IMG/VR virus record: IMGVR_UViG_3300045988_155520
Location: 248,239 to 312,238 of that record
Strand: one strand, 5' to 3'
From: a virus
Length of the DNA: 64,000 bases
Part shown: in pieces, positions 6,956 through 64,000 of the stretch
Numbering within the stretch: the stretch's first letter is position 1
Layout: each line of letters begins with the position of its first letter
Program-made: the position numbers and the translations under genes
Notes under the pieces: generated by a model
Told to the model about the DNA's origin: nothing
What the model saw: the letters and a program-made list of their open reading frames with translations, nothing else
Databases searched by the model: none

Positions 6956-6962
6956 GAACTAT

Positions 6963-7289
6963 TTAAACTTTTAATCCTATAGCTTCAAACCAATTCCATA
7001 TTTTGATATATTTATCAGTATCATATTGAAAGCTACCAGTAACAAAATAATTAATTGGCATCATAATAAACATTATTAATATTAGGATTATAGCCAATGG
7101 CATAGTTAATCTCAAAAGGGCAGGAACTTTCTTCTTATGGACCATGAAAAATCTCACATTAGATTGAGAAAATCTTCTATATAGTTCATCACGTGATAGG
7201 TCTTTAAGTTCTGGAAAAATCTTATCAAAATCTGGAATATAGTTCATACTTCCAAATGATGTTACATTTTCTAATTTTGTAAAAATCAT
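6963..7289 (-). CDS. membrane protein
   Basis: Hydrophobic helix LLRLTMPLAIILILIMFIMMPI. Confidence 0.5.
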   Translation of the reverse strand: MIFTKLENVTSFGSMNYIPDFDKIFPELKDLSRDELYRRFSQSNVRFFMVHKKKVPALLRLTMPLAIILILIMFIMMPINYFVTGSFQYDTDKYIKIWNWFEAIGLKV

Positions 7290-31621: not shown

Positions 31622-33241
31622 TCATACACTTCCAATACATTCACGACCTACCTTTGGTAGGCTTCTTCGAAACGATAACAATACTTCTTTCACTTTCTCA
31701 CGTCTAAGTAACCTTGGCTCAAAAGCACCATTATCAAGCTGTTTTAAGAGTTTATCTCGTAACACGGTTACAAGAACTCTATTTTTTATATTTTTTGCAG
31801 CATTAAAGTCTGCATTATCTTTATGCCCACATTCAACACATTCAAATGTTTCTTGATTTGGTCTATTACCATCTTCAATGCAGCCACATACAGGACACAT
31901 CTTTGATGTATAACTTGCTTGAACAGTTGAAACTGCGATGTCATACTTCCTTGCAATATGTTCCACCTCTTGTTTCAAACTACTTAAACCAAGAAAGCTA
32001 ACCTTTCGGTTGTAATTTATATCTTTATTGTCACCATCTTTGACGTAACACTTTCCAAATCCATTATTAAGATTTTCCATTACAATGTGACCAGTTCCTT
32101 TAATTTTTTCATTCTTACACATAGTAGCTATGGTTTGCTGTTCATTCTTAATAATTTTCTCCTTTAACTTGTTAAGTTTACGTTGTTTGCGTTTGCCTAC
32201 CTTATATTCTTTATTTTTCCCTTTAAATCTATCAATCTCAAGAGATAACTTGCAAAAATCATTAACTAATTTTCTATCATAGTCATAAGTGGTTTCATCT
32301 GATAAGCAGAACAAATTGTGTTTGCAATTAACATCTATGCCAATAGTCTGTCCATTTGGTTCTGGGATATACCTTTCACCATCTTTACATATGTTTACAT
32401 TCACTTGATGCTTCTTTTCATCGAATGTAAGAGTATATACATAATCAGGAGTGTTCTTTCTATAATCCTTCATACTTCCGTGCCATCCTTTATTAAAGGT
32501 AACTGGTATGTCAAATGATTTCCTACTGAGCCCACTAAGACTTATGAATGAATTGATAACTGACCCAAACCTGCGATTATAATCAATTATCTTTTTCTTT
32601 CTACATCTACCACGAAAGGTTAATGACCTGAACTCTATAGGATTGTTGGCATATTTGTCAATAATACGTTTTCTCTTTGATAATGCAAGTGCATATAACC
32701 TTTCAAAACCGAATTTATCACAACATCTTATTATATTGTTATAGAAGTCACGTTTATTAGCATCACATTTGTCAACGTTAGATTTGATATAAGCAATAGT
32801 ACCTTCATTTCCATACCTTGCAAGGTAAGTAAGACAATTGGATAAAGATGTGTGTTTCTTATCAACAATTACTTTTTTCAAGTCACCCTTTTTATTATTC
32901 TTTGTATCACGTTTATAACATTCAAAACCTTTGAATACAGATATTTCAAAGACAAGCTTACGTTGTATTGCATCAAATTTATTCTGATAACAAGTAAATA
33001 CTTGTGTATAAATTTGCGTATCAAAGGAACTTGGTACCGAACCTTTGAATTTTGTTCTCATTTCTTTTGCAAATTGGAACTTTGTATAATCAAGATAGTG
33101 CAATAAGTTTTCATTTACATGTTGTGATACTATGTTTTTATGTTTTTGAATAAGTACAGCAAAGTTATGTAACTCGTCATATTTCTGACGAGTTAAATCC
33201 TTTGAATGGAATACCTTTGTGTACTTACTCTGTATAATCAT
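31622..33241 (-). CDS. TnpB/Cas12f-like RuvC nuclease (539 aa)
   Basis: RuvC-I TIGIDVNCKHN, RuvC-II HIVMENLN, and a zinc ribbon CPVCG...CVECGHKDNADFNAAKNI carrying RuvC-III. The N-terminal half is longer than in canonical TnpB. Confidence 0.8.
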   Translation of the reverse strand: MIIQSKYTKVFHSKDLTRQKYDELHNFAVLIQKHKNIVSQHVNENLLHYLDYTKFQFAKEMRTKFKGSVPSSFDTQIYTQVFTCYQNKFDAIQRKLVFEISVFKGFECYKRDTKNNKKGDLKKVIVDKKHTSLSNCLTYLARYGNEGTIAYIKSNVDKCDANKRDFYNNIIRCCDKFGFERLYALALSKRKRIIDKYANNPIEFRSLTFRGRCRKKKIIDYNRRFGSVINSFISLSGLSRKSFDIPVTFNKGWHGSMKDYRKNTPDYVYTLTFDEKKHQVNVNICKDGERYIPEPNGQTIGIDVNCKHNLFCLSDETTYDYDRKLVNDFCKLSLEIDRFKGKNKEYKVGKRKQRKLNKLKEKIIKNEQQTIATMCKNEKIKGTGHIVMENLNNGFGKCYVKDGDNKDINYNRKVSFLGLSSLKQEVEHIARKYDIAVSTVQASYTSKMCPVCGCIEDGNRPNQETFECVECGHKDNADFNAAKNIKNRVLVTVLRDKLLKQLDNGAFEPRLLRREKVKEVLLSFRRSLPKVGRECIGSV

Positions 33242-33465: not shown

Positions 33466-35613
33466 TTAATTTTTAAATTTATCATACAAATCAATGATAC
33501 TCATTTCTCCATCGTCTTCTTCCTCAAGGAAATTAACGAAATTCTTTTCCATATCATTACGGCATATTTTTTCATTAAATAGAGTACCGTCACGCTTACA
33601 CTTTCTGAATATCTGAGTAATACGTCTAAGGTTCTTTACCATAAGATAATAATTGAACTTTACTTTAAATTTGAATCCAGTAGCATCTGTGACTACAACG
33701 CCTTCTACCGTATTATTAGTGCCTATATTAGTTCGTAAATAATCCCATAACTCATCATTAGTATTAATAATAAATTCGTCTGGCATTCTAAAAGATGTAT
33801 TTTCTCTTAAGAAATTCTTGAACTTATCTGACTCTTCGGTATATTTTTCACCAAGATTAAGCACATTATGGATAATATCCAACAATACTACATCTTCCTT
33901 ATCATATCTAATAATATGTGGGTCTTCTGTAGGACTAATCACTTCAAACACAGCCGAAGCATTCTCTTTCTTAAGAATATTCTTCAACAGGTCTTTATCG
34001 TGCTTACTAACAGTTTCGTTAAAAATACGTTCAAAACGTTCAGCAAAAGGACCACTATCGGTTGTCTTAGATGCAAATACTAACTGATTGTCAACTACTG
34101 ACATAATACCAAGATATCCATTCTCCTTTATCGTTACTTTTACAGGGAACTTAAGAGTTTCTTCAAGTTTCTTTCTCTTAGTTGACTTATGTTCGTCAAT
34201 ATTAAAGAACTTGTCATAAGAACGCATCTTTACTTCTCCTGTATTCTTATCAACGAATAAACCACGTGCCTTGATAGTAGCAAAGTTCCATTTCTTTCCA
34301 ATAAATGCATTACGATTAAAGTTGATAGAGTACATATTATGCTTACAACCCTTTACATTAACAAGACGACTGTTCATTATCTTCTTAACTTCTGGGTCAT
34401 CAACCTTATATACTACTTGCTGAAAAGCGTTCATATTCTCAATACTAAACACTTTATTCTCGTAATTTAATATAGCAGCATATTCTGGAGTTATAGAGAA
34501 AACTTTTAAGTTTCCACCAAACTCAACACTATCTTCAAGACAAATGGAATGGTCTGTAGACAGAGTGTTACGATGACCATGTATCTGTATAAAGTCCTGA
34601 CACTTTCCAAGTAGATAATTATCTTCATAAATTTTATCTACTTCCATATCATATCCGCCAACACCCTTAATCATATCGTTTGTTGGAATCGTAGTAAGGT
34701 TTGGAACAGATGTAAGACCGCCATGTGTTATCAAGTATTTCTGACCGCAGTATGTGAAAGCAAAGCACTGACGCATACGATAGTAAATCTTCTTTAACTC
34801 CTTGCGGACCTGTTCTAAAGGATAAACCTTGGTTATCTCATCAAGTGTCATCTTGAAGTATTCTGAAGTTATCTCCTCACCGTTAATCAAACGCCAGATA
34901 TGCTTCTCGTGATTTCCTTCAAGAAGGACCACGTTGTCATCATTATAATGTGACAATAGGAACTCATACACTTCTTTATTTTCGATACCACGGTCGAAAT
35001 AATCACCAACGAATACATATAACACGTCTGGGTTTAAAGAGCCACCAATGGCTTCTAAAAGGCATGTATGACAACCATGTACATCACCAATAATCTTTAC
35101 TTCTTTATATTCGGAAGCATCGGTAATGTAATAATTGAGAATATCTTCTACATTAGTAATTTCCTTAAAACGATTGGATAATTTATTTTCTTGAAGTATA
35201 CTGTATGCACGACGAATATCAGCATCTGGAACACGTCTAACTGTGTCACGTAGTAAATTACGTTCCAAACATTCTTCCAAGGTTGCTTCAACGTTATGCT
35301 GATAACAATTATAACGATACTTGTCAGCTAATTCTACATACTTAGATACAGCCTTGGATGTCTTATGAGTAGCATCAATCACTGTGAAATCACCATTACG
35401 CATACGATTCTCAAGCATAGTATGTAATGTGTCCCATACCATTTTATCGGAACGTGCGCTAATAGTCATGTCTCCTTCCTCATTCATCTTTGGAGAATGA
35501 AACATTAAACGTATATCATCGGCTGATAATGTATAATTAGTAAGACCATTTTCCTTAATGAAAGTAGACTTACCACTGCCCATACAACCTCTTAGAATTA
35601 GTAAAGTACGCAT
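33466..35613 (-). CDS. pnkp: trifunctional Pnkp-like RNA repair enzyme (5' kinase, metallophosphatase, ligase)
   Basis: P-loop GCMGSGKST plus SADDIR (T4 Pnk-like). GDVHGC...GDYFDRG...GNHE is calcineurin-type phosphoesterase. KENGYLG (ligase motif I, KxNG), EGVVV and FKVK are nucleotidyltransferase motifs IV and V. Confidence 0.75.
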   Translation of the reverse strand: MRTLLILRGCMGSGKSTFIKENGLTNYTLSADDIRLMFHSPKMNEEGDMTISARSDKMVWDTLHTMLENRMRNGDFTVIDATHKTSKAVSKYVELADKYRYNCYQHNVEATLEECLERNLLRDTVRRVPDADIRRAYSILQENKLSNRFKEITNVEDILNYYITDASEYKEVKIIGDVHGCHTCLLEAIGGSLNPDVLYVFVGDYFDRGIENKEVYEFLLSHYNDDNVVLLEGNHEKHIWRLINGEEITSEYFKMTLDEITKVYPLEQVRKELKKIYYRMRQCFAFTYCGQKYLITHGGLTSVPNLTTIPTNDMIKGVGGYDMEVDKIYEDNYLLGKCQDFIQIHGHRNTLSTDHSICLEDSVEFGGNLKVFSITPEYAAILNYENKVFSIENMNAFQQVVYKVDDPEVKKIMNSRLVNVKGCKHNMYSINFNRNAFIGKKWNFATIKARGLFVDKNTGEVKMRSYDKFFNIDEHKSTKRKKLEETLKFPVKVTIKENGYLGIMSVVDNQLVFASKTTDSGPFAERFERIFNETVSKHDKDLLKNILKKENASAVFEVISPTEDPHIIRYDKEDVVLLDIIHNVLNLGEKYTEESDKFKNFLRENTSFRMPDEFIINTNDELWDYLRTNIGTNNTVEGVVVTDATGFKFKVKFNYYLMVKNLRRITQIFRKCKRDGTLFNEKICRNDMEKNFVNFLEEEDDGEMSIIDLYDKFKN

Positions 35614-36277: not shown

Positions 36278-36628
36278 TTATCTGATTAATATCTCGGTTT
36301 CACTATTTATCACTGGTCTATCAAAAAGATGCTCGGTGAACCATGATTCATAATATTCATCTATATTACAATTTGGATTATTAAATTTCCAAGGAATTTT
36401 TTCTTCGTCTTCTTTGACACATTCATATTCTAACGTTTCAAAGTAATTGTTTCCTTGCCACATAACTCTTTTCCCTTTTGGAAACCATGGTACAATATAG
36501 ACAAAATGTTCTATTTCATCTTGGTCAAAAGGTTTTCTTCTTTCATCGAAAAGAGTAACTGTTATGTCTAAATTTAACAAACGTATTGAAAAATCTCTAT
36601 TTATGGTTAAATCAACATTACTTTTCAT
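36278..36628 (-). CDS. hypothetical protein
   Basis: ORF track. Confidence 0.45.
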   Translation of the reverse strand: MKSNVDLTINRDFSIRLLNLDITVTLFDERRKPFDQDEIEHFVYIVPWFPKGKRVMWQGNNYFETLEYECVKEDEEKIPWKFNNPNCNIDEYYESWFTEHLFDRPVINSETEILIR

Positions 36629-37409
36629 TTTTACTGAAAATGGATTTTATACGGCCAAAGAAACCTTTATTCTTTTTAAAATATTCATTTGATGATAAAT
36701 CTCGATTGCTACTTAATGTAAAATGATTATTATTACGATGAATGTCATCAGGTGTATTGCTCTTGTTAGTTTCAGTATATTGTCTAAGAGTATTAATCAA
36801 TTCATCTGTTGTAGCAGGCATTGTGATAGTTATTGCTGGGTCTTGATGCTTCTCAGCTTTATATTCGGCAACCAACTTGTCTAATGTAAGGTCACAAAAT
36901 TCATCCTCCCAATCACCTAAATAATAGAATCTATCAGACACAACTTTTCTGTCGGTAAAAACACCAAAGAGAATAGGGTCTTTATCTCTACGTTCTTGTT
37001 GTACTTTTCTTTCTGTTGTACCAGTATAATCAGTAAATACTACATAGAACTTATCAAAGATATCTTTTGTTTTTGCTACAACTTCCACTATTTCATCTGG
37101 TATTTCACGGGTGTAACTTTCTAAATCTTGAATTTTAACAACATCTTTTGTTACATTATCAATATAATCTTCGATAACACTACGATAAATAAATTTATCA
37201 ACGCCAATTTCCAACAACTTTTCTTCCTTCTGCATTACTTCTGCAAGGAACTTAAGTTTTTCCAAAGATTTAATTTGACCTGTCTTTTTATACTTTTCAC
37301 TTAAAAAACAGATATTATTAAAAGATTGTTTTAAATTCTCGTTACTAATACTTTCTACATTACTTTTTAGCTGTAAAAAGTAATCATGAGGTGTCAATTC
37401 TTTTTCCAT
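36618..37409 (-). CDS. hypothetical protein
   Basis: ORF track. A -7 box TATCTTTG lies at 37436-37443. Confidence 0.5.
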   Translation of the reverse strand: MEKELTPHDYFLQLKSNVESISNENLKQSFNNICFLSEKYKKTGQIKSLEKLKFLAEVMQKEEKLLEIGVDKFIYRSVIEDYIDNVTKDVVKIQDLESYTREIPDEIVEVVAKTKDIFDKFYVVFTDYTGTTERKVQQERRDKDPILFGVFTDRKVVSDRFYYLGDWEDEFCDLTLDKLVAEYKAEKHQDPAITITMPATTDELINTLRQYTETNKSNTPDDIHRNNNHFTLSSNRDLSSNEYFKKNKGFFGRIKSIFSKNEK

Positions 37410-45446: not shown

Positions 45447-45818
45447 CTAACAACCTTCAACTCTAATCTTTCTCCAGATTGAACCATTCGAGAAATATAT
45501 ATGTGGATAATCTAAAGAATAAATGTATAATTTATCTCTGATATCTCCTGAAAAATATAAGTATCTATCTCTGTAATACCATCGCCCAGTAAAGGTAGTA
45601 TTTAAAATTGATGAATGATATCTAACATTATACGTTCCATTGCGATACAGACATATCTCTTTATATGGTGAAGTGTAATCTTCATTTACCCACTTTCCTA
45701 ACATTATTTCAGGTGTTGGAATATCGTGGTAATAATCATCGTAATAATAATCTGAAGTGCATGATGTTAATGATAATAGGAATGTTAACCCGATGAATAA
45801 TAATTTAATTTTTCTCAT
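45447..45818 (-). CDS. small lipoprotein
   Basis: Internal Met gives MRKIKLLFIGLTFLLSLTSCTS. Confidence 0.6.
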   Translation of the reverse strand: MRKIKLLFIGLTFLLSLTSCTSDYYYDDYYHDIPTPEIMLGKWVNEDYTSPYKEICLYRNGTYNVRYHSSILNTTFTGRWYYRDRYLYFSGDIRDKLYIYSLDYPHIYFSNGSIWRKIRVEGC

Positions 45819-45837
45819 TAAAAATAGCTCAAGGAAA

Positions 45838-47358
45838 CCCACAAAACTTTAGTTCGTGGGGGGAATTGAGCAACTATTCCTTCTTTCTGTTAATATACTT
45901 CTTCTTTTACTTATCAATCGTATATGTTTACAACTGATAGAACCTTTGTTTACTTTTGTTCCGTCAAGTCTTCTAATATCAAAGAAACCACTATCTCTTC
46001 TTCCAAATATATAATACAATTTCTTTTGATATTCAACTAAGTCAAATAATCTATACCCTTTTACCAAGAATGGTGATTGATTGAGTTTTTTCCTTCCACC
46101 TTTCAAGAAATTAGCCTTATGTATTTGTCTGTTCTGGCATCGCACTTTCTTTTGATAGAAATAATACCCAAGAGGTTTTGATTTAGGATTACCACTTATA
46201 CATCTTGCATCAACATGATGTTCTTTAGGTAGCCCATTAGTGATACGGGTGTTCTTTGTGATATATCCAAAAGTCATACTTACATTAGGATAGATATTCT
46301 TTAGTCTCTCGTATGTAGTCCAACGAGCAATCCCCATAAAGGCAGCATCCCTGAATGATGCGCCACGCTTTACCTTGATGTCTATTTTACCATTGTGATA
46401 TGCCTTGTGGCAAGATTCACATAGCGTGATTAGATTGCTTGGAGAGTTTCCTCCAGTTTTTCTACTTTCAATGTGATGTACATTCAAGATATGGTCTTTA
46501 CTCTTGCCTTTGCAATGTTGGCAAGTGTGGTTGTCTCTGAATAGCACATACTCACGCACATTAAAGAAACCAAGTTGTTCTCCTTGTTGATATTCTTTGC
46601 TTGATATACTTGGATTCTTAATCTTTTGTATGTCAAATGAAGCAGTTTCAACTATAATTTTAGTTATTGGCAGGAACTTATGTATCTTCTCTACAACGGT
46701 CAAGTGTGTTTGAATCTTATTCTCAACAGATGGAGCTAACCAACCTTTGTATTTTGAAGATACTCTGTTGTTAAAACGAGCCTTACGATAACGTAATCTA
46801 TTTCTACGAGTTCTTCTTTGTTCTCTACGAGTAGATAGTTTATCTACAATGTCATTTCTCAGTTCTACATCTGCTGCATACAATTCCTTCTTACTTGTTG
46901 TTGCGGATATGCCGATATGCTTACTACCAGCATCTACACCCAAACTTATGGGCTGAACGAAATGAGTTGTTTCATAATCCAATCGAATTGTGAATGGAAT
47001 ACGACATATAACGTGGGCAAGACCATTTTTCAATAATCTTCTCACTTTGCCAAATCTTTCAGTAGGCATTAGTGCTTGTCCATCTTTGTTAATTACGTAA
47101 ACCATTCGTTTTGCTTATTTTTTATTTTTACTGTAAGTCGGATTTCTCCGTTAAATGCTCATCGTCAATGTTATGGAGAGGTTTATATATTAGTAACACT
47201 ATTCCTACCTCACAGAATTGTTTAATCACTAACCTTAGAGCAAGGGGCTTGAGCAAACACCCACTTGGTAACTATATATTCTCTCCTAACGTAGCACTCG
47301 AAGTGCTTAGACTAATCAACTTGGGCTTTTTCAAGCCCACAAACCTTTAACCTGTGGG
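45838..47358 (-). mobile_element. IS200/IS605-family IscB element without tnpA
   Basis: Bounded by related hairpins: cccacaaaactttagttcgtggg (45838-45860) and cccacaaacctttaacctgtggg (47336-47358). It encloses iscB and a structured upstream region. Confidence 0.6.
45849..47105 (-). CDS. iscB: IscB RNA-guided nuclease (RuvC + HNH)
   Basis: PLMP-type N-terminus (DGQALMPT), RuvC-I LGVDAGSKHIG, Arg-rich bridge helix RREQRRTRRNRLRYRKARF, RuvC-II IIVETASFD, HNH CQHCKG...NVHHIESRKTGGNSPSNLITLCESCHKAYH, RuvC-III EHHVDA. Confidence 0.85.
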   Translation of the reverse strand: MVYVINKDGQALMPTERFGKVRRLLKNGLAHVICRIPFTIRLDYETTHFVQPISLGVDAGSKHIGISATTSKKELYAADVELRNDIVDKLSTRREQRRTRRNRLRYRKARFNNRVSSKYKGWLAPSVENKIQTHLTVVEKIHKFLPITKIIVETASFDIQKIKNPSISSKEYQQGEQLGFFNVREYVLFRDNHTCQHCKGKSKDHILNVHHIESRKTGGNSPSNLITLCESCHKAYHNGKIDIKVKRGASFRDAAFMGIARWTTYERLKNIYPNVSMTFGYITKNTRITNGLPKEHHVDARCISGNPKSKPLGYYFYQKKVRCQNRQIHKANFLKGGRKKLNQSPFLVKGYRLFDLVEYQKKLYYIFGRRDSGFFDIRRLDGTKVNKGSISCKHIRLISKRRSILTERRNSCSIPPTN

Positions 47359-47375
47359 TAGTGACAACATTAATA
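47106..47375 (-). ncRNA. putative IscB omega RNA (scaffold plus 5' guide)
   Basis: About 250 nt directly upstream of iscB, GC-richer than the surroundings. It contains several hairpins (cccacagg..tttgtggg, gggcttgaaaaagccc, agcacttcgagtgct) and a long-range GGAGAG/CTCTCC complement. The position matches known IscB systems. Ends were not mapped. Confidence 0.5.
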
Positions 47376-47508
47376 GTAATATTCTTTAAATCCATTTGTT
47401 GTACTAACTGTTTCTGTCTCGTTATTAGATAGACTAATAATAGTTGATTCAAAAACGTATTCTTCTTTTTCCATTTCTTTATTGATTTAATATTAATTTT
47501 TTCTGCTA

Positions 47509-47516
47509 CAAAGATA
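47509..47516 (-). promoter_or_regulatory. -7 box TATCTTTG upstream of the IscB element
   Basis: Lies directly after the macro-gene terminator and about 150 nt upstream of the element end. Confidence 0.45.
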
Positions 47517-47520
47517 CAAT

Positions 47521-47550
47521 AAAAAAACGAAGCTACCAAATTATAGCTCC
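47521..47550 (-). terminator. hairpin + T-run terminator after the macro-domain gene
   Basis: ggagcta-loop-tagcttc followed on the minus strand by ttttttt. Confidence 0.5.
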
Positions 47551-47564
47551 GTTTTTAACATTAT

Positions 47565-48023
47565 TTAATTTAATGGTTCATATAGATAAATCTCACATTC
47601 TAAATCTTGTAATTTATCAAGAATCATTTTGTGAACTGTATTGTAATCTAATTTACCATTAGTACATCCCAGTGCAGGAATAGCAATTGATTTAATATTT
47701 CTTTGAACAATTTCTCTTTTTAAAGCATCTAAACCATCTTTTATATAAGAATATTCAGATGGATACTTCCAATGAATTTTAGTTGGGAAATTAATGATAA
47801 TTTTCTTATCAGTGAATAATGTACCTTCTTCTTTGGTAATGAACATTTTACCAATTACCACTTCATTTTTACTACACGCTTCTTTATAAAGTTCAAAGTT
47901 CTTAGGAAATTTTTTCTTAAACTGGAGGGCAATACCTTTACCCATAACACCAACACAGTTAACAGTGTTAACCAAGGCTTCTGCATCACTCTCCAATAAA
48001 TTTCCATTTACATGGTGAATCAT
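47565..48023 (-). CDS. macro domain protein (ADP-ribose binding/hydrolase fold)
   Basis: GNLLESDAEALVNTVNCVGVMGKGIALQFKKKFP is the canonical macro-domain N-terminal signature. Confidence 0.75.
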   Translation of the reverse strand: MIHHVNGNLLESDAEALVNTVNCVGVMGKGIALQFKKKFPKNFELYKEACSKNEVVIGKMFITKEEGTLFTDKKIIINFPTKIHWKYPSEYSYIKDGLDALKREIVQRNIKSIAIPALGCTNGKLDYNTVHKMILDKLQDLECEIYLYEPLN

Positions 48024-48634: not shown

Positions 48635-49816
48635 TTATTCAGATAAATGCAAATCACTCATGGCTTTATCAAATTCTTTTGGGTCTCCCATGTGTTTGCC
48701 TATATCATCACTAATTTTGATACAATTCTCCCATGGGTCCTTGCTACTATATCTTGCTTTTGATAATTTCATAACAATATTTGCTGGCTTATAATCTTTA
48801 ATATCTGTATCACAAGTTAGATTTGTTCCAATTCCAGCTGATACCATAATACGACCATTAAAGTAATCATGAATTTCTTTGTACTTTTCAAATGTAAGTG
48901 CATTTGAGAAGATAAGTAATTTGGTCTTCGGGTCAATACCTAATTCTTGTAAACGTTTAATAATCATATTACCAATCTTAAACTCATCACCACTGTCTTG
49001 TCGGAAACCTCTCAAAAGCAAAGCTTGTTGTAGAGTTAAGGTTTTAAGGAAAGATTCGGTAGTATAGGTATCAATTAGCGCTGTACCCAAATTGCCTTCA
49101 TATACGTCAATCCAATCCTCAAGACCCATATAGTTTGCACGCTTATAGCCATACACAGCTGCGTGGAACATCATCCATTCGTGAGGGAAAGTTCCAGTAG
49201 GACACATGTGGTGTTTCTTTGCCAAATATACATTACTTGTTCCAGCACATACAGGGCACTTTTCTTTTAATCTTTTAACTACTTCATTCTGCACATTAAA
49301 ACTATATCGTCTACGTGTTCCAAATTCAGAAAAACCGAGATTATTCATATTGGCATAAGAAATCTTATCTTCTAATTTTAACATGGTTTTCTCCATATTA
49401 ATCTTATTTCCTAATACTCGATTTCTTACTTCTGCATATGTGGCAAGAATAGCTATCTCATATAATGTAACACGATAGAGTTTATCAGTAACTTCACACT
49501 GGAAGACCCCATCATCATCCAGCCACATCTTAATAAGTTCTGGTTTGAAACGAAAAGTGCCTAACCATTCCCAATAATTCTCTGGAATGTAATCAATATT
49601 CTCAACACACCAATCTCTTTCTTCATTTGTAAGACGAATATTGGATAAGTTCTCAACCTGCAATTCCATTTCATCCATAAAGTTCGGATAATTTCTCCAA
49701 TCCTCTTTGTTTCTGTCGTTAAACTTAAACGTCCCTTCCGCTCTATTAAACTTATGGAAATAAGCGTATGAAGTACTGAATTTATACAAATCTGTATCTA
49801 AAATTGATTGAATCAT
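48635..49816 (-). CDS. pncB: nicotinate phosphoribosyltransferase
   Basis: LDTDLYKFS, FGTRRR, GTSN, GTFPHEW, RQDSGD, GIGTNLTCD and NIVMKL are colinear with E. coli PncB motifs. Confidence 0.8.
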   Translation of the reverse strand: MIQSILDTDLYKFSTSYAYFHKFNRAEGTFKFNDRNKEDWRNYPNFMDEMELQVENLSNIRLTNEERDWCVENIDYIPENYWEWLGTFRFKPELIKMWLDDDGVFQCEVTDKLYRVTLYEIAILATYAEVRNRVLGNKINMEKTMLKLEDKISYANMNNLGFSEFGTRRRYSFNVQNEVVKRLKEKCPVCAGTSNVYLAKKHHMCPTGTFPHEWMMFHAAVYGYKRANYMGLEDWIDVYEGNLGTALIDTYTTESFLKTLTLQQALLLRGFRQDSGDEFKIGNMIIKRLQELGIDPKTKLLIFSNALTFEKYKEIHDYFNGRIMVSAGIGTNLTCDTDIKDYKPANIVMKLSKARYSSKDPWENCIKISDDIGKHMGDPKEFDKAMSDLHLSE

Positions 49817-50608: not shown

Positions 50609-51910
50609 TTAATGAATCTGATAATTTTCAATTAATTCAATGCATTCTTTTTTTGTTAAATCTGGATTCTTACATTGTTCTTCGTGTAGATAGTCAATAA
50701 GTGATTTTCTATCATTACCTGTAATATCTGTACGATACGAGAAAATTTCATTACCATCTATCGGAAGATAAATCTTAGCACTATCTTTTATTTTTAACCA
50801 CGTATTTATCGTTTCGTTATAAGTTTCTTCATCTGTAAAAACTCGATATACCCACAATGCATTATCTATGTTATGGTCACATTTCTTATATAATCTACGT
50901 AAAGATACTTCTAAATCTTCATCTTCTCTTCGGAAGTTTTTCCCTAATAATGCATTTTGCACATGCTTTATTATTACATTCGGTTGCTTTTGATGAGATA
51001 GAATAGTTTCACATGCACTATCTGTTTTGCAAAATGATAGAAGTATTGAAAAACGAGCATATAAACATGTAGGTGCTTGATTACATATAGTAACTATTTT
51101 ATCAAACATACTATTAAAGTTCTGTGAACATGGAACAAAACTTTGTACAAATAGTTCTGGAAGAATATGATATAAAATACCACTATCTTTTAGATAATAC
51201 AAACCATTAATACAGTTTTTATTGGATATTATTTTATTTAATTCATTACGTATTCTTTCTTTAGAGATAATCTTTATTCTTGAAGCGCATTCTTGTAATG
51301 ATTGCCATGTTTTATCTTCTATGTTCCAACCGTATCTATTTGCGAATCTAATAACTCTCATTATACGCAATGGGTCATCAAAGAAGACTATGTTAGGATT
51401 ATCATTTGTAGTTCTGATAACATGATTTTTCAAATCATCAAGTCCTTTTCCTGTAACATCTTCTACTTTATCTGTTGAGATATTGTAATATAATGCATTA
51501 ATGGTAAGGTCTCTTCTGAAAGCATCTTCTTCTAAACTTCCAAAACACGTTTCTGGATTACGTGATTCTGAGTGATATTGCTCTTTTCGTGTTTCTACAC
51601 TTTCAATAACAACATCAGAACATTCATCACAATTCTTTAAATGAAAACTTGCGGTACCATACTTAGGATATACAGTAGGATTAGAATCACTATGACTTTT
51701 ATCCAGCTCTGTTAAAGTGTTTGCTAAATCTATTCCACCAGACGGAAGATTAACTACAATATCTAAATCATTAGACGTTTCTCCCATTAATGTGTCACGT
51801 ACAAATCCACCTACAACATACGTAACACCTTCAAATTTGGTTCCTTTGATAAGTGTACGTATTGTGTTGATGGTTTTTGCTATCTTTTTATCTTTTATTT
51901 CAAATTTCAT
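50609..51910 (-). CDS. cca: tRNA nucleotidyltransferase (CCA-adding enzyme / poly(A) polymerase family)
   Basis: GGFVRDTLMG..NDLDIVV and RRDLTINALYYN are head-domain motifs. Confidence 0.8.
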   Translation of the reverse strand: MKFEIKDKKIAKTINTIRTLIKGTKFEGVTYVVGGFVRDTLMGETSNDLDIVVNLPSGGIDLANTLTELDKSHSDSNPTVYPKYGTASFHLKNCDECSDVVIESVETRKEQYHSESRNPETCFGSLEEDAFRRDLTINALYYNISTDKVEDVTGKGLDDLKNHVIRTTNDNPNIVFFDDPLRIMRVIRFANRYGWNIEDKTWQSLQECASRIKIISKERIRNELNKIISNKNCINGLYYLKDSGILYHILPELFVQSFVPCSQNFNSMFDKIVTICNQAPTCLYARFSILLSFCKTDSACETILSHQKQPNVIIKHVQNALLGKNFRREDEDLEVSLRRLYKKCDHNIDNALWVYRVFTDEETYNETINTWLKIKDSAKIYLPIDGNEIFSYRTDITGNDRKSLIDYLHEEQCKNPDLTKKECIELIENYQIH

Positions 51911-55808: not shown

Positions 55809-56282
55809 CTATTTCTTTTTATATATCATAAATTTAAATTTGATGTTATTTTCTTCTTGGGTCAAAGACTCGTAAATATTTTTCCACTTACTATCTGAAA
55901 AAATATTTAAAGGAAAGTAACTATCCCCTTCTGTTTTATCTTCCACCAGCGTAATATATGCTTCACTAATCAGATTCTCATCTAAAAAAGCATTATAAAT
56001 GGAAGAACCACCGATAACAAATACGTCTTCATTCTTTATATTCAGATGACGCATTAATGTAATCGCTCCATTAATTGAATTAACGAAATGAACACTTGTG
56101 TCTCCAAATTTTTCTGTACATAATTTTGGATTAGACGTAAGGACAATGTTGGTCCTATTCTTAAGGGGCTTCTGATTTGGTAAAGAAAGATACGTATTCA
56201 TACCCATAATGACAGTGTTACCATCCGTAAACCGTTTAAAATTATCCATATCATTTGGAATATGGTAAAGTGAACTACACAC
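55809..56282 (-). pseudogene. folA: dihydrofolate reductase lacking about 20 N-terminal residues
   Basis: LYHIPNDMDNFKRFT aligns with PWNLPADLAWFKRNT. VIMGMNTY, PLKNRTNIVLT, VIGGSSIY and GDSYFP are also present. The beta-strand 1 / IG segment is absent, and the frame hits a stop within the TnpB element end. Confidence 0.7.
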
Positions 56283-56420
56283 AAGTTGAAGACTTGTGTG
56301 CTTCGGGTTTCACTGAGGAATGGTCTTTCAAATGATTGACTCTTACTTCCTCTCCACCCGTGTAATCGACAGTCCCTGCCGATTTTGTATTATTTAAACC
56401 GAAACGAAGAATATTGATTG
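56261..56420 (-). ncRNA. putative TnpB omega RNA (3' end of tnpB plus flanking guide)
   Basis: Position by analogy with IS605 TnpB systems. A perfect 8-bp hairpin cacacaag-tcttcaa-cttgtgtg (56278-56300) sits at the element end. Extent was not mapped. Confidence 0.4.
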
Positions 56421-57483
56421 CTGCATTCACATCACGGTCATGATGACTATGACAATGAGGACACTCCCATTCACGAACCGACAAATCTTTAATGTCTTTG
56501 TAAACATACCCACAGGTACTACAAGTCTGTGAGGATGGGAAGTAACGGTCTATCTTCACGACCTTCTTGTCGTTCCATTCCGCCTTATAGATAAGTATGG
56601 AAACAAAATGTCCCCAACTTGCATCAGAAATGGACTTGGCAAGACGATGATTTCTCGTCATACTCTTAACATTCAAATCTTCGATACAAATTGTATCATA
56701 TCTTCGAACAAGAGAGATAGAGCACTTATGCAGATAGTCGGCACGACTATTGGAAATCTTTTCATGAAGTCTGGCAACTTTGAGTTTTTGGTTTTCAAAC
56801 CCTTTGCTGCCTTTAACTTTGCGAGAAAGATGTTGTTGTGCTTTAGCAAGTTTGCACTCATACCTTTTTGTATATCGGTTATTATTAAAAGTTTCTCCAT
56901 CAGAAGTGGTAAGCAAATCCTTTAAACCCATATCTACACCAATTGACTTGTCAGTCTTCTTAATCGGTGTAATGTATTCTTCTTCCGTGAAGACGGAAAC
57001 AAAATACTTTCCACTTGGTGTCTTGGTAATAGTTACCTTCCCTATTTTACCTTTTATCTCACGGTGTACACGACACTTAATACCTTCCTTGAACTTGCGT
57101 ATGAAAAGTCTACCACATGCTACAGATGCAAATTTTGGAACGGTAAAACTATTTTTGGAGTGTTTGGATTTGAATTTAGGAAACTTAGCACGCTTCTTAA
57201 AGAAATTATTATAGGCTGATTCAAGACTGCGGATTGCAAACTGCAATATTTGGGCATTTACCTCCTTTAACCATGCAGTTTCTTCCTGCTTCTTTAATGT
57301 GGTAAGCGTTTTACACTGCGCATAGAAGTTGTCGCTATTACCAGTGAGCCTATATTGTTCTTTACGTTGATTGAGAAAGTAATTGTACACAAAGCGAGAA
57401 CATCAAAAGTGCTTTGCCAGCAATTCGGTTTGTTCCCTGTTTGGATACAGTCTGAACCTGTATGTTCTGTTAATCTTTCTCAT
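56275..57483 (-). pseudogene. tnpB: IS605-family TnpB with in-frame TGA at codon 27
   Basis: ATG at 57483 gives MRKINRTYRFRLYPNREQTELLAKHF, then TGA (57403-57405), then CSRFVYNY... continuing into the track ORF. RuvC-I IGVDMGLKDL, RuvC-II ICIEDLNV, and CSTCG...CPHCHSHHDRDVNAAINI are present. Confidence 0.85.
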
Positions 57484-57626
57484 AACATTTGCAAAGATAC
57501 TAATTATTTTGTGATTAACAAAACTTTTTCACATATTTTTTGTCATGAAAGAGGACTGCTATCGCAAAACGGTAAAAACCACTCCATATCATAGTGTCTT
57601 ACACTCCACGAACTAAAGACTTGTGG
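56278..57626 (-). mobile_element. IS200/IS605-family TnpB-only element
   Basis: Left-end hairpin ccacaagtctttagttcgtgg (minus strand, 57626-57606) and right-end hairpin cacacaagtcttcaacttgtgtg (56300-56278). An internal -7 box lies at 57492-57499. Confidence 0.6.
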
Positions 57627-57629
57627 GTT

Positions 57630-57923
57630 TTACGGAACTTTACATAATCTTACTATTGATTCAGTTATTATTTTATTCAAAACGTTGTCTAACTCATATT
57701 CTTTTAAATCTTCTAAATTTGGTTTTTCACGCTCTGCTTCTTCTGGCATATTATCCTTCTTGAAGGCATAATCTCTATATACCTTAAATGTATTTTTTTC
57801 TGCCAAATCATATGCATCACTAAAAGGACTATAATATACTAATAATGTCTTAATCTCATACCCATTTGCATCAAGTATCTCTTGAATGGCATGTTTTGAT
57901 AAATTTAAATCGAATCTATTCAT
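57630..57923 (-). CDS. hypothetical protein
   Basis: The start is moved to MNRFDLNL because a -7 box (57943-57950) lies inside the track ORF. Confidence 0.5.
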   Translation of the reverse strand: MNRFDLNLSKHAIQEILDANGYEIKTLLVYYSPFSDAYDLAEKNTFKVYRDYAFKKDNMPEEAEREKPNLEDLKEYELDNVLNKIITESIVRLCKVP

Positions 57924-58555: not shown

Positions 58556-59173
58556 TTAATATACAAAGTTATCTTTTTGATGAAATTCTTGACGTAACTC
58601 AAGTAATCTTGTGTGAAATCCTAATTTAAAATTCTCCAGAAATAAACGTAATTTCATTTTAAAAGGTATAATACCTGCTTTCACAGCAGCACCTTTAATC
58701 AGTTTATCATGATTAAACGCCCAACGCATTTTATCTATATTTTTTAGGTTAACCCAAGCAATCGCACCTACTTCGTTCTTCTCCATATTCTGTTTTGAAA
58801 ACTTAAAGTCATCAATAATTGCATGCTGATACACCGCATAATATCTAAATGTAATATTCTGACGCTTATCATCATTAGGGTCATCATTAAAAGACCAAAA
58901 CTTAATTAAATGTGATGGTACTTTTATTCCTGTCTCTTCAAGTGTTTCACGCTGTGCTGCTTCTTTGGTTGTTTCGTTATAATCAAGATAGCCACACTGA
59001 CAATTCCATGCATTAATCAATTCTGGGTCAGGCGTACCTTCGCCACGCTGTGAAGCCAAGACGCACCATTCACCACGCAAGTTCTTGCAAAACACAAACA
59101 TGACAACGCTTACTGAACGGCTAATCCAATGTTCTTGTCCTTTATTGTCTTTTAACGAAAAATTATTCATCAT
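58556..59173 (-). CDS. Nudix hydrolase
   Basis: Perfect Nudix box GYLDYNETTKEAAQRETLEETGI (GX5EX7REUXEEXGU). Confidence 0.8.
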   Translation of the reverse strand: MMNNFSLKDNKGQEHWISRSVSVVMFVFCKNLRGEWCVLASQRGEGTPDPELINAWNCQCGYLDYNETTKEAAQRETLEETGIKVPSHLIKFWSFNDDPNDDKRQNITFRYYAVYQHAIIDDFKFSKQNMEKNEVGAIAWVNLKNIDKMRWAFNHDKLIKGAAVKAGIIPFKMKLRLFLENFKLGFHTRLLELRQEFHQKDNFVY

Positions 59174-61809: not shown

Positions 61810-61944
61810 TCTTTAAAACTATTTTTTATATGATTTGCAGATAAAATTCCAACAATAATACAAATAATTATAGTGATAAAACTTGCATCCATAATTTTTT
61901 GTTGAATATATATTTTTTGCTTATTGGAACAACATTAAAAATAG

Positions 61945-62016
61945 TAACGCCAACGGGACTCGAACCCGTGACTCCACCGTGAAAGGGTGGCGACTTAACC
62001 ACTTGTCGATGGCGCT
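61945..62016 (-). tRNA. tRNA-Glu (anticodon TTC)
   Basis: Hand-folded cloverleaf: acceptor AGCGCCA/TGGCGTT, anticodon arm CCACC-CTTTCAC-GGTGG, T arm ACGGG-TTCGAGT-CCCGT. Confidence 0.8.
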
Positions 62017-62025
62017 ATAAAAATG

Positions 62026-62096
62026 AGCGAGCGAACGGAATCGAACCGTCACACCCAGCTTGGAAGGCTGGAACACTACCATTATGCTACGCTCGC
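62026..62096 (-). tRNA. tRNA-Gly (anticodon TCC)
   Basis: Acceptor GCGAGCG/CGCTCGC, anticodon arm CCAGC-CTTCCAA-GCTGG, T loop TTCGATT. Confidence 0.8.
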
Positions 62097-62116
62097 AATC
62101 TGCATTTTTTTTAATG

Positions 62117-62197
62117 TGAGTAGTGGTGGTTTTGAACTACCGAAACTATAAGCAGCAGATTTACAGTCTACCGTATATGAAAATCTACGCAAATCTC
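62117..62197 (-). tRNA. degenerate tRNA-Tyr-like sequence (anticodon GTA), possibly a pseudogene
   Basis: The 3' two-thirds closely resemble bacterial tRNA-Tyr (GTAGA-CTGTAAA-TCTGC, long variable arm, GGTAG-TTCAAAA-CCACC). The best 5' strand, GAGATTT, pairs at only 4 of 7 acceptor positions, and the D loop lacks GG. Confidence 0.35.
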
Positions 62198-62367
62198 TGA
62201 TTTAAGTACTTTTCATTTCTTGCTTCAACCTATCACTACTTTTTAGGAACACTTAGAGTGTTCGGTCATCCATAGGAGGATAGTCCACAAGCGTAAATTA
62301 GGTGCTACGGACACCTACTTATTTAAAAGATTATTATTTCTGTTATAAAATCAATAAAAATTATTAG

Positions 62368-62440
62368 TTGGATGAGGTGGAATCGAACCACCGACACATG
62401 GACCTTCAAACCACTGCTCTACCGACTGAGCTATCACCCA
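62368..62440 (-). tRNA. tRNA-Phe (anticodon GAA)
   Basis: Acceptor TGGGTGA/TCATCCA, D arm GCTC-AGTCGGTA-GAGC, anticodon loop TTGAAGG, T arm GGTGG-TTCGATT-CCACC. Confidence 0.75.
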
Positions 62441-62445
62441 TTATG

Positions 62446-62518
62446 AGCTGAATGTGGGACTCGAACCCACAGCCTACTGATTACAAATCAGTTGCACAAC
62501 CAATCGTGCTCATTCAGC
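62446..62518 (-). tRNA. tRNA-Thr (anticodon TGT)
   Basis: Acceptor GCTGAAT/ATTCAGC, anticodon arm ACTGA-TTTGTAA-TCAGT, T arm GTGGG-TTCGAGT-CCCAC. Confidence 0.8.
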
Positions 62519-62535
62519 TATTAATTATTTAATTA

Positions 62536-63363
62536 TCATTTCTGTTTAATGTTCCACATAGGAGTTTCTCCAGAACCAACAAGTACATCAATATTAGCAC
62601 CCTGTTTACTTGCAATTACATCCCATGCACGAAGTTGAATAAACTGCTGTGGAGAAAGTGCCAACTCATTCATATAAGCCTTGTCCGCAATAGCCTTATT
62701 CTTTTCAGCTTTGGCTCTTGCTAACTCCATTTCAGCCTTCTTCTCCTGTGTCTGCTTTGCTTGAATTGCAGCAGCAGTCTTGTTCATTTCATCGAGCTGT
62801 TCCTTATTAGGCATAACTCTATCTGTAGTAACCTGCTGAATAGTAACAGGGAAGTTTCCTCTTGTCTTTGAAAGTTGCTGAATATAAATTCTCATTGACT
62901 TAGCAATTTCAGTGTCAAGTTTATTAAGTACTTCACGATTGCTCATCAAATCAAATGGAGAACACGTAGAAACATATTCACGTACCTTATTCTTGAAATA
63001 AGGTTCAATGAATGTTTTATACCAGTCTTCACCATAATTCTCCAACAATTCAGGAGTATGCCCTTTCTGAACTTGCAATACCATATACATGCTTACATCC
63101 AAAGGTGTGTTATCGTTTGAAAGCAAGTCATCGAACTTGAACTCCACCTTTTGAGGAAGAATATAAAAACTCACAGCTGATGTTGTCCATGCAATACATG
63201 TTAAGTCATTAACAGGAGTAGGGTCTACACCAGTACTACCAACAAACCATGGCTTCATCTTTAAAGCTACTTCTTCATCGTATGATGGGTTTGTAAATGA
63301 ACAGCTTGTTAATGCTGTTACAGCAAAGATTGCAGTAGCAATAAACGTAACAATTTTCTTCAT
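62536..63363 (-). CDS. SPFH/band-7-like lipoprotein
   Basis: Signal peptide plus lipobox (AVTALTSCSF). The C-terminal Ala/Lys/Glu-rich helix and QQFIQLRAWDVIAS... are typical of prohibitin-like proteins. Confidence 0.5.
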   Translation of the reverse strand: MKKIVTFIATAIFAVTALTSCSFTNPSYDEEVALKMKPWFVGSTGVDPTPVNDLTCIAWTTSAVSFYILPQKVEFKFDDLLSNDNTPLDVSMYMVLQVQKGHTPELLENYGEDWYKTFIEPYFKNKVREYVSTCSPFDLMSNREVLNKLDTEIAKSMRIYIQQLSKTRGNFPVTIQQVTTDRVMPNKEQLDEMNKTAAAIQAKQTQEKKAEMELARAKAEKNKAIADKAYMNELALSPQQFIQLRAWDVIASKQGANIDVLVGSGETPMWNIKQK

Positions 63364-63387
63364 ATATGCTTTGATTTAAATTAATAT

Positions 63388-63648
63388 CTATTCTTCTGAA
63401 GTTGGTCTTATTCTTAAAACTTCTGAGAACTCATCTTTCGTCAGATACCAGAATGGTTTACTTCCATTCTTGTAATACATTTTAGTGAAATCATCTGGAT
63501 GTAATGCCAAATGAAATAATACATGAAAAATATTAAAAACGTTACTATCATCCCAACCTGAATTTTTTGCTCTTAAAAATATTCCAATTGGGAAAAGTAT
63601 GATTCCAATAATAATTCCAAGTAATAAACTTAAAAATACTGTTAACAT
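63388..63648 (-). CDS. small membrane protein
   Basis: N-terminal hydrophobic helix. Confidence 0.5.
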   Translation of the reverse strand: MLTVFLSLLLGIIIGIILFPIGIFLRAKNSGWDDSNVFNIFHVLFHLALHPDDFTKMYYKNGSKPFWYLTKDEFSEVLRIRPTSEE

Positions 63649-63667
63649 ATTTATGTTGCTTTAAAAA

Positions 63668-63743
63668 GTCCTCGCTGATGGACTTGAACCACCGACCACT
63701 TGGGTATAAGCCGAGTGCTCTAACCAACTGAGCTAAGCGAGGA
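63668..63743 (-). tRNA. tRNA-Ile (anticodon TAT)
   Basis: Acceptor TCCTCGC/GCGAGGA, D arm AGCTC-AGTTGGTTA-GAGC, anticodon loop CTTATAC, T loop TTCAAGT. Confidence 0.75.
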
Positions 63744-63752
63744 AAAATTATG

Positions 63753-63844
63753 CGGAGATTATAGGACTCGAACCTATACACCATATTACTACGATTACTG
63801 ATAGTTTAGCAAACTATTGCCTTACCAATTAGGCTTAAATCTCC
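63753..63844 (-). tRNA. tRNA-Ser (anticodon GCT), class II
   Basis: Acceptor GGAGATT/AATCTCC, anticodon arm ATAGT-TTGCTAA-ACTAT, long variable arm, T arm ATAGG-TTCGAGT-CCTAT. Confidence 0.8.
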
Positions 63845-63852
63845 AATATAAG

Positions 63853-63939
63853 AGGAGAGTAAGAGATTCGAACTCTTGGAACATTTTACTGTCCTCTGGT
63901 TTTCAAGACCAGCGCTTTAAACCACTCAGCCAACTCTCT
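63853..63939 (-). tRNA. tRNA-Ser (anticodon TGA), class II
   Basis: Anticodon arm CTGGT-CTTGAAA-ACCAG, long variable arm, T arm AAGAG-TTCGAAT-CTCTT. The acceptor has an A1-C72 mismatch. Confidence 0.7.
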
Positions 63940-63943
63940 AGAA

Positions 63944-64000
63944 TGGTTGCAGGAGAGGGAGTCGAACCCCCGACCTCTGGGTTATGAGCCCAGCAAGCTA
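63944..64000 (-). tRNA. tRNA-Met/Ile2 type (anticodon CAT), 5' part beyond the window, CCA encoded
   Basis: Anticodon arm CTGGG-CTCATAA-CCCAG, T loop TTCGACT, 3' end TGCAACCA. Confidence 0.6.

Follow-up and report, generated by a model that had tools for sequence, protein, structure and literature searches.

The window analysed here, a stretch of 64,000 nucleotides (nt) from IMG/VR virus record IMGVR_UViG_3300045988_155520 (positions 248,239 to 312,238), carries on its minus strand a 1547-bp element of the IS200/IS605 transposon family that consists only of a gene for the nuclease IscB and of its omega RNA. We consider it very probable that this element is non-autonomous and that it acts through selfish RNA-guided cleavage of its own empty site. 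A first-pass annotation, made from the letters alone, had described, inside a phage genome, a tnpA-less element in which an omega RNA precedes an intact IscB, and this core reading was supported by the tests reported below. The features of the element and of its borders are as follows; L numbers denote loci, and the basis of each feature is given in brackets.

45819..47365, minus strand: complete non-autonomous IS200/IS605-family IscB element, 1547 bp, with no target-site duplication (empty-site comparison)
45849..47105, minus strand: iscB coding sequence, stop codon included, 418 amino acids (aa) (Pfam, phmmer against PDB, catalytic residues, ratio of nonsynonymous to synonymous substitution rates, dN/dS)
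47126..47365, minus strand: omega-RNA (HEARO) scaffold, including the terminal hairpin CGGAGAAATCCG (47150-47139) past the Rfam model (Rfam, conservation, RNAalifold)
47366..47381, minus strand: predicted natural 16-nt guide TATTACTATTAATGTT, which is phage flank and comprises the last codons and stop of a 34-codon gene and a 4-nt spacer (5' of HEARO position 1)
47336..47358, minus strand: subterminal hairpin CCCACAGGTTAAAGGTTTGTGGG at the omega-RNA end, both the right-end hairpin on the TnpA-active strand and the first internal omega-RNA hairpin (covariation)
45838..45860, minus strand: subterminal hairpin CCCACGAACTAAAGTTTTGTGGG (CCCACAAAACTTTAGTTCGTGGG on the plus strand) at the iscB 3' end, with the stop codon in its loop; transposon left end (covariation)
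45819..45837, minus strand: terminal 19 nt TTTCCTTGAGCTATTTTTA between the left-end hairpin and the insertion junction (empty-site comparison)
45813..45818, minus strand: flanking target-adjacent motif (TAM) ATGAGA, whose ATG is the start codon of a lipoprotein gene (junction survey)
47370..47474, minus strand: 34-codon phage gene, upstream of and co-oriented with the element (open reading frame, ORF, conserved in the empty-site contigs L082 and L083)
45447..45818, minus strand: lipoprotein gene (MRKIKLLFIGLTFLLSLTSC...), whose start codon abuts the element (homologue starts at the empty-site ATG in L082 and L083)

The 418-aa ORF is apparently a genuine and intact IscB nuclease gene, as judged from its domains and catalytic residues. 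Pfam placed RRXRR, which we term IscB-specific, on residues 2-175 (9.6e-62) and HNH on residues 195-238 (1e-9), and the ORF lies at the coordinates and carries the IscB hallmarks that the first-pass annotation had given. The motif of the PLMP-type N-terminal domain itself reads ALMP (residues 11-14) and aligns with the PLMP motif of OgeuIscB, the position of which was taken from PMC9640706. The top matches in a phmmer search of PDB were all IscB structures (OgeuIscB, 7utn and 7xht, and its relatives; E = 1e-50 to 1e-52), and IsrB and small Cas9 proteins ranked below them. A check of the catalytic residues, proposed in the first-pass annotation, found all RuvC and HNH residues in place. The OgeuIscB residues D61, E193, H340 and D343 (RuvC) and H247 (HNH) (Kato et al. 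2022, PMC9640706) correspond to D58, E153, H296, D299 and H211, counted through the PDB-search alignments; D58, E153, H211 and D299 are invariant across 11 phage-borne relatives, and H296 is invariant across 13 broader homologues. An Arg-rich bridge helix (residues 92-111, RREQRRTRRNRLRYRKARF) lies between RuvC-I and RuvC-II and within the IscB matches, and its Arg positions are invariant in the homologue alignment. HNH is inserted in the split RuvC, and the CxxC...CxxH zinc ligands are conserved. The region expected to form the TAM-interacting domain (residues ~336-418) is conserved among homologues, with G337, K340, N342, G350, D355, R369, R370 and G373 invariant. The dN/dS of the window copy against relatives ranged from 0.08 to 0.26, and by this estimate iscB is under purifying selection.

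The region upstream of iscB matched the Rfam family HEARO (RF02033) over the full model. Positions 47365-47150 of the minus strand, which is the iscB strand, covered model positions 1-211 of 211 with 127.7 bits and E = 2e-27, ending 45 nt before the iscB ATG; at this E value, and with a gathering score of 83 bits, the match is not due to chance. The comparison with omega-RNA models that the first-pass annotation had called for thus came out positive, and two of its observations on the ~250 nt upstream of iscB held as well. G+C content is 38% at 47114-47365, compared with 24-27% in the flanks and 30.5% in the whole window, and the long-range complement between GGAGAG (47286-47281) and CTCTCC (47180-47175) is paired both in the HEARO model and in an independent RNAalifold consensus. 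That consensus, built from 14 copies in different phages, contains 51 pairs, 16 of them with compensatory double changes, which include the GGAGAG/CTCTCC long-range helix and the 3-bp helix that encloses it (columns 71-73 with 222-224). Conservation with relatives and with an orphan copy in phage PF672P2 (described below) extends past the Rfam model to about 47114-47126, and downstream elements absent from RF02033 have been described (Meers et al. 2023, bioRxiv 10.1101/2023.03.14.532601). The remaining Rfam matches in the region (RAGATH-17, 29 vs 102 bits; two snoRNA families; histone 3' stem-loop) fell far below threshold and were dismissed as chance.

The ends of the element were determined by comparison with insertion-free relatives, as the first-pass annotation had suggested. 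Five closely related phage contigs (L082-L086) were recovered by searching with the neighbouring macro-domain protein. The element is present at the same locus in the window, in L004 (the contig also listed as L085), and in L084 and L086, and it is absent from L082 (222 kb) and L083 (105 kb), which are 88-90% identical to the window on both sides of the element and lack exactly the element. With ^ marking a junction, the uninterrupted empty sites read ...TATTACTATTAA(T/A)GTT^ATGGA..., and the window reads ...AATGTT^GTCAC...TTTTTA^ATGAGA. In full, the empty site is ...TATTACTATTAATGTT^ATGGATAAG... in L082 and ...TATTACTATTAAAGTT^ATGGAGAGA... in L083, and the window junctions are ...TATTACTATTAATGTT^GTCAC... 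on entering the element and ...GCTATTTTTA^ATGAGAAAA... on leaving it. From these three junction reads the element therefore runs from 47365 to 45819, spans 1547 bp and duplicated no bases. Copies inserted elsewhere are homologous to the window only from about 47362-47366 to about 45804-45830.

The first-pass annotation had placed the ends at 47375 and 45838, and these positions were replaced by 47365 and 45819. The two related hairpins with which it had bounded the element (45838-45860 and 47336-47358) are real and are related, but they are subterminal and do not mark the ends. The insertion point lies 4 nt past the stop codon of the 34-codon gene and directly 5' of the lipoprotein-gene ATG, in the same orientation as both genes. 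The 34-codon ORF had been noted correctly, but its stop ends 4 nt, not 12 nt, before the element end; nor is it a remnant of the target locus, as had been proposed, since it is conserved intact in the element-free phages and is therefore a real gene.

The natural guide was placed at 47381-47366 because HEARO position 1 is G47365, and its length of 16 nt was adopted from OgeuIscB (PMC9640706). The first-pass annotation had located the guide correctly just outside the element end, but the sequence it gave ended at 47359 and took in 7 nt of scaffold. These 7 nt, GTCACTA (47365-47359), form the 5' strand of the outer stem of the scaffold and are part of the transposon end. The guide matched the L082 empty site at 16 of 16 positions, with ATGGA following there, and the L083 empty site at 15 of 16. 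The single mismatch is 4 nt from the TAM-proximal end, within the seed as defined by Kato et al. (PMC9640706). Elsewhere in the window, no other match with two or fewer mismatches was found, and matches with three mismatches occurred at chance level.

Both end hairpins share a CTAAAG-type loop and are subterminal, and no terminal inverted repeats were found. The right-end hairpin covaries (CCCACGAG..CTCGTGGG in L079, CCCACAAG..CTTGTGGG in L080); in the left-end hairpin of relatives the CTAAAG loop is unchanged and the stems covary. The hairpin is separated from the element end by 19 nt at the left end and by 7-8 nt at the other (7 in the window copy), a geometry that we take to fit the left- and right-end spacing of IS608 if the plus strand is the TnpA-active strand. 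The IS608 rule, by which bases 5' of the hairpin foot pair with the cleavage site, was applied to the element ends and gave no convincing pairing. On sequence grounds, we regard the end hairpins as IS200/IS605-type TnpA recognition hairpins.

The transposon right end gives rise to the IscB scaffold and the guide lies beyond the boundary, and the TAM of wild-type GstIscB, written 5' of the left end, is TTCAT (Meers et al. 2023). In all surveyed copies of the present family, the iscB-distal end (...TTT) is followed by ATG, mostly as ATGAA, which usually opens an ORF. On the TnpA-active strand the left-end flank is accordingly always CAT and usually TTCAT. One junction survey preselected ATG[A/G], so that only positions 5 and beyond are unbiased in it; the ATG itself rests on the raw sequences and the empty sites. 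The flanking motif is ATGRA, and its commonest form, ATGAA, is the reverse complement of TTCAT; therefore the TnpA-active strand is the window plus strand, and the left end lies at the iscB 3' end. We infer that the TAM equals the published GstIscB TAM, and it also satisfies the NNRR TAM of OgeuIscB (PMC9640706). A scan of IMG/VR for genes downstream of the left-end hairpin agreed independently with this orientation: TnpB shared the strand of the hairpin in 58 cases; IscB was encoded opposite to it in 16 cases and shared its strand in 2; and a Y1 TnpA was found in 12. The TnpA of such elements on other viral contigs is a 137-aa protein (Pfam Y1_Tnp, 5.6e-32) with 198 relatives in IMG/VR; some of these are on human-gut viral contigs, where the right ends consist of the hairpin followed by TAGTTCAC.

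Searches of IMG/VR returned at least 129 relatives of the IscB at 75% aa identity or more. Their sites comprise about 28 upstream contexts, about 21 downstream contexts and 32 combinations of the two, and in the copies surveyed the insertions lay only directly before the start codons of co-oriented genes. The contigs that carry the relatives measure 45-220 kb and derive mostly from human-gut samples, and some hold two copies. Among the IMG/VR relatives listed, 78 of 80 were at least 84% identical. One genome from each of 185,579 bacterial and archaeal species was also searched; a single contig held a copy at 84% identity or more, with flanks common to the viral loci, and the next genome relatives were at most 72% identical and came from Clostridia, Lachnospiraceae, Paludibacteraceae and Methanobrevibacter. 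With its near-exclusive occurrence on viral contigs, this IscB lineage therefore appears to circulate in phages. Homologues 57-59% identical were present in metagenome-assembled genomes of archaeal Methanobrevibacter from the gut (L103, L105, L106, L132), which suggests that in gut communities the family has spread between domains.

The proposed mechanism builds on what was observed, namely the family and catalytic residues, the omega-RNA match and covariation, the ends, the match of guide and empty site, the shared hairpins, the insertion sites and the selection on the protein; transcription, RNA processing, cleavage, homing and the source of TnpA are the steps extrapolated from it. Read-through from an upstream phage promoter would yield an RNA in which the 16-nt flank TATTACTATTAATGTT is fused to the structured scaffold. 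Loaded with the RNA, IscB would recognise the 16-mer wherever it directly precedes ATGRA in a copy of the phage genome. This sequence is the empty site, which could arise by TnpA-mediated excision or be met in a co-infecting relative without the element. The RuvC and HNH domains of IscB would cut both strands, and repair of the break by recombination with a genome that has the element would put the element back or copy it. Because phages replicate as many recombining copies and co-infect with relatives, such a mechanism would amount to homing. New sites would be reached through a Y1 transposase TnpA supplied in trans, recognising the two subterminal hairpins and the TTCAT-like motif. Placement at start codons can be explained by a TTCAT target together with selection against gene disruption in a compact genome, and the requirement for external transcription of the guide may add to it. 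Selfish RNA-guided cleavage of the empty site, in the service of retention or homing, is thus the most likely function of the element.

Several results weigh against this mechanism or against the activity of the window copy. The outer stem of the window scaffold carries a 1-nt deletion (one A) near the guide, at 47362-47365, reading GTCA-CTACCC vs GTCAACTACCC in most relatives, and this leaves a bulged U in the stem; the deleted A is present in the L004 copy at the same site. The window HEARO score of 127.7 bits compares with 130-151 bits in most relatives with full-length scaffolds. The deletion may lower activity, or may be an assembly error. The TAM is ATGGA at the L082 and L083 empty sites and ATGAG at the window flank, where ATGAA is the commonest form, and GstIscB was reported to be sensitive to TAM changes (Meers et al. 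2023). For residues ~336-418, no sequence match to solved IscB chains was obtained, even with a 14-homologue profile against PDB sequences. Finally, three search approaches (an HUH/Y1 regular expression; tblastn with an approximate IS608 TnpA sequence; and the TnpA from viral contigs) all failed to find TnpA in the 64-kb window and within 6 kb on either side of about 90 related loci. The absence of tnpA from the window had been stated by the first-pass annotation, and it is on the basis of its absence from the window and the searched flanks that the element is filed as non-autonomous, as are ~98% of iscB genes (Meers et al. 2023).

Such defects would be expected if the window copy were a decaying or inactive relic, with a damaged scaffold and no local transposase, that persists as a harmless passenger between two genes. 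The window copy has a 1-nt deletion of its own in the stem next to the guide; H297, beside the catalytic H296, replaces a Tyr found in 11 of 11 compared relatives; tnpA was not found in the window; and the family includes truncated iscB copies (L015, L067) and orphan omega RNAs (PF672P2, L035), so that decay does occur in it. However, the ORF is full-length with every catalytic residue present, several independent copies match it at 96-97% identity and dN/dS of 0.15-0.26, the HEARO score is far above threshold, one bulged U amounts to a mild defect in a stem of 8 bp, and both end hairpins are intact. We therefore regard a relic as rather unlikely. It is more improbable still, to the point of being hardly tenable, that the gene encodes one of the free-standing, protein-guided HNH homing endonucleases that are common in phages and that the structured leader upstream is unrelated to it. 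GenBank phage homologues are labelled 'HNH endonuclease' and an HNH domain is present, but HNH here sits inside a split RuvC, the N-terminus is of PLMP type and an Arg-rich helix is present; the closest structures are IscB throughout; and the leader matches HEARO/omega RNA over its full length and is supported by covariation. This explanation is thus already contradicted.

The alternative that comes closest assigns the benefit to the phage. In it, the carrier uses IscB as a weapon or gene drive that cuts co-infecting insertion-free relatives and excludes their flanking markers or destroys their genomes, much as the free-standing Seg and Mob homing endonucleases of T-even phages do, and the role of the nuclease exceeds protection of the element from loss after excision. 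L082 carries an exact, uninterrupted target with an ATGGA TAM, viral contigs account for nearly all occurrences of the clade at 84% identity or more, purifying selection acts on the protein, and a subclade with a 414-aa IscB that has lost the left-end hairpin required by TnpA keeps intact iscB at 9 or more sites. On the other hand, the guide is whatever flank adjoins each copy (28 upstream flank clusters), as pure selfish homing predicts; no benefit to the phage is evident; and the window copy retains both TnpA hairpins and so is still transposon-like. The mechanism also overlaps that of selfish cleavage and differs only in the beneficiary. A competitive function of this kind is possible but doubtful, and selfish cleavage of the empty site remains our preferred explanation.

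The 414-aa subclade (L019-L068) lost its left-end hairpin by deletion between GCAAG and GCGAG, and its iscB now stops at a TGA that overlaps the flanking ATGA. Intact iscB is nevertheless kept before at least 9 different downstream genes. With the hairpin lost, TnpA should not move such copies, and the many sites of the subclade could reflect recurrent deletion, homing together with flanks, or another mechanism.

Orphan omega RNAs were observed at two kinds of loci. A megablast search of INPHARED with 5.5 kb and 20 kb around the window locus returned no related phage, and the sole match was a 254-bp omega-RNA stretch in Parabacteroides phage PF672P2. In this cultured phage (OP172820.1, ~57570-57828; L001 3131-3389, minus strand) iscB does not follow the RNA, which is 91% identical to that of the window over the whole scaffold and scores 130 bits with HEARO. 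A DUF3127 gene starts about 30 nt after it, at ...AAATT^ATGAAT, resembling the terminal motif of the element, and GenBank annotates over it, on the opposite strand, a 59-aa 'hypothetical protein' (PF672P2_00077) that is probably spurious. This orphan may be what a deletion left behind, or it may serve as a guide in trans. Another orphan HEARO RNA (L035 9264-9504, minus strand; 85.8 bits), more degenerate and again not followed by an IscB ORF, is intergenic and lies about 2 kb from an intact IscB element; the same lineage was seen in L043, L046 and L063. Some derivatives of the family may thus no longer need TnpA, namely the 414-aa subclade and orphan omega RNAs that would borrow IscB in trans. 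Separately, the 152-kb viral contig L073 holds two elements of IscB and omega RNA, at 742-2249 (plus strand) and 5748-7254 (plus strand); they are about 5 kb apart on the same strand, and their proteins are 59% identical.

The window also contains a sibling of the IscB element.

56270-57627, minus strand: IS605-type element with a TnpB gene (57483..56275) (Pfam OrfB_IS605 and Cas12f1-like TNB domains)

Its left-end hairpin, CCCACAAGTCTTTAGTTCGTGG, is at 57627-57606, and its right end, ...GTGTGTAGTTCAC, is at 56300-56270. Both hairpins are near-identical to those of the IscB element and, as expected, are on the strand opposite to the TnpA-active strand of the IscB element. The TnpB frame contains an in-frame TGA after MRKINRTYRFRLYPNREQTELLAKHF and is therefore a pseudogene or recoded. 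The right end of the TnpB element abuts a DHFR ORF (55809-56282) that lacks approximately the first 21 positions of the Pfam DHFR model, and the element may have truncated or split the DHFR gene. A third OMEGA-type gene is a 539-aa TnpB-like ORF at 31622-33241 (minus strand; Cas12f1-like TNB, 9e-17; phrog_506 'transposase'). No tnpA is adjacent to it, its ends are unlike those of the other two elements, and locus L017 has a close homologue of this ORF downstream of its IscB copy. A 263-aa ORF at 36618-37409 (minus strand) matched phrog_10081 'transposase' (3e-77) and no Pfam domain.

The surroundings of the IscB element agree with the first-pass annotation, which had set it between a terminator/promoter pair and three lipoprotein genes.

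47509..47556, minus strand: terminator-like hairpin (47556-47523) after the macro-domain gene, overlapping a promoter-like motif (consensus scan; motif by sequence search)

The three downstream ORFs begin with signal peptides that end in the lipobox-like motifs LTSC, ITSC and LSSC. The promoter-like motif is of Bacteroidetes type, with TTTG (47540-47537), 20 nt and TAtcTTTG (47516-47509); it was matched by eye to TTTG-N20-TAnnTTTG, which we take to be the Bacteroides -33/-7 consensus. A sigma-70 promoter scan gave 8 sites vs 10.7 expected and was uninformative. All ORFs of at least 150 aa in the window are on one strand, except one with a TTG start, and the region is syntenic with IMG/VR viral contigs. 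The genes of the window include those for an RNA ligase/kinase-phosphatase, a tRNA nucleotidyltransferase, NAD salvage, a macro-domain protein and a DNA methyltransferase, as well as eight tRNA genes. Neither a capsid nor a terminase gene was identified in the 64-kb window, and the designation as phage thus rests on gene content, strand layout and synteny with viral contigs. The lipobox proteins, the promoter-like motif and the 91% omega-RNA identity to the Parabacteroides phage copy suggest a Bacteroidales host.

Within this region, a set of RNA-repair and NAD genes (33466-35613, 47565-48023, 48635-49816, 50609-51910, 58556-59173 and 61944-64000) includes a 715-aa kinase-phosphatase/RNA ligase, the macro-domain protein, a phosphoribosyltransferase, a CCA-adding enzyme and a NUDIX protein. 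The phosphoribosyltransferase was matched only by a nicotinamide-phosphoribosyltransferase PHROG. Such a gene set recalls counter-defence against host systems that cleave tRNA or deplete NAD.

Among known systems, the closest is GstIscB (ISGst-type, Geobacillus stearothermophilus; Meers et al. 2023). Like the window element, it is a non-autonomous IS200/IS605 element with only iscB and an upstream omega RNA, its scaffold derives from the right end with the guide beyond the boundary, its TAM is TTCAT (here ATGAA on the iscB strand), its upstream gene is co-oriented, and it is part of a network in which TnpB, IscB and TnpA elements have end hairpins in common. By published description, its catalytic residues are numbered D58/H209/H210 vs D58/H210/H211 here. 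Unlike GstIscB, which resides on a Firmicutes chromosome, the window element is found in human-gut phage genomes, is seen, like its surveyed relatives, only directly before co-oriented start codons and has no identified cognate TnpA in the window or in the ±6-kb flanks searched around its relatives. OgeuIscB (Altae-Tran et al. 2021; 7utn, 7xht, 8csz; PMC9640706) shares with the window IscB the order of PLMP, RuvC-I, bridge helix, RuvC-II, HNH and RuvC-III, the aligned catalytic D/E/H/D and HNH His, and a HEARO-class RNA with a long-range helix, and ATGR fits its NNRR motif. In contrast to the 496 aa of OgeuIscB, the window IscB has 418 aa; it lacks a ~30-residue REC-linker insertion (chain residues ~114-143), its C-terminus is shorter and not alignable by sequence, and it has ALMP instead of PLMP.

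The T-even SegF and Mob systems of intronless homing (reviewed in PMC13565253) resemble the present case in that a nuclease gene lies between conserved phage genes and is predicted to spread by recombinational repair after the nuclease-free allele of a co-infecting relative is cut. In contrast to those systems, target recognition by the window IscB is predicted to depend on a guide RNA and TAM rather than on protein, and transposon ends allow unrelated sites to be entered. The novelty that the first-pass annotation implied for an IscB in a phage was overstated, as more than 16% of HEARO/IscB-bearing contigs are viral or prophage-derived (Goltsman et al. 2022, PMC9755519) and 39 GenBank phage records hold IscB-like ORFs. 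That study gave the frequency only, whereas here the ends, the empty site, the match of guide and target, and the partner TnpB and TnpA elements are resolved for one gut-phage lineage. IscB, the HEARO/omega RNA, the IS200/IS605 context, the TTCAT TAM, the role in retention or homing and the presence of HEARO nucleases on viral contigs are thus already published. The present locus contributes a fully resolved natural example from gut phages, with the empty target kept in wild relatives and a co-resident TnpB sibling.

IscB and its omega RNA are the likely ancestors of Cas9. The natural role of IscB, the retention of a transposon by cutting the empty donor site, has been shown for Geobacillus elements tested in E. 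coli. At the present locus, every component of the retention model can be read from the sequence in phages: exact ends, a perfect native target in wild relatives, a TTCAT-type motif, and TnpB siblings and TnpA elements with shared hairpins. We suggest, tentatively, that the phage-borne lineage could be an RNA-guided gene drive among co-infecting gut Bacteroidales phages, in which the ATGAA TAM makes co-oriented start codons the sites of landing and homing. If so, placement at start codons would keep insertions harmless and guarantee transcription of the guide, and cleavage would convert or exclude element-free relatives such as the L082-type phage. The locus is not a new kind of system, but it supplies a compact 418-aa IscB with a predicted TAM and makes RNA-guided homing between co-infecting phages directly testable.

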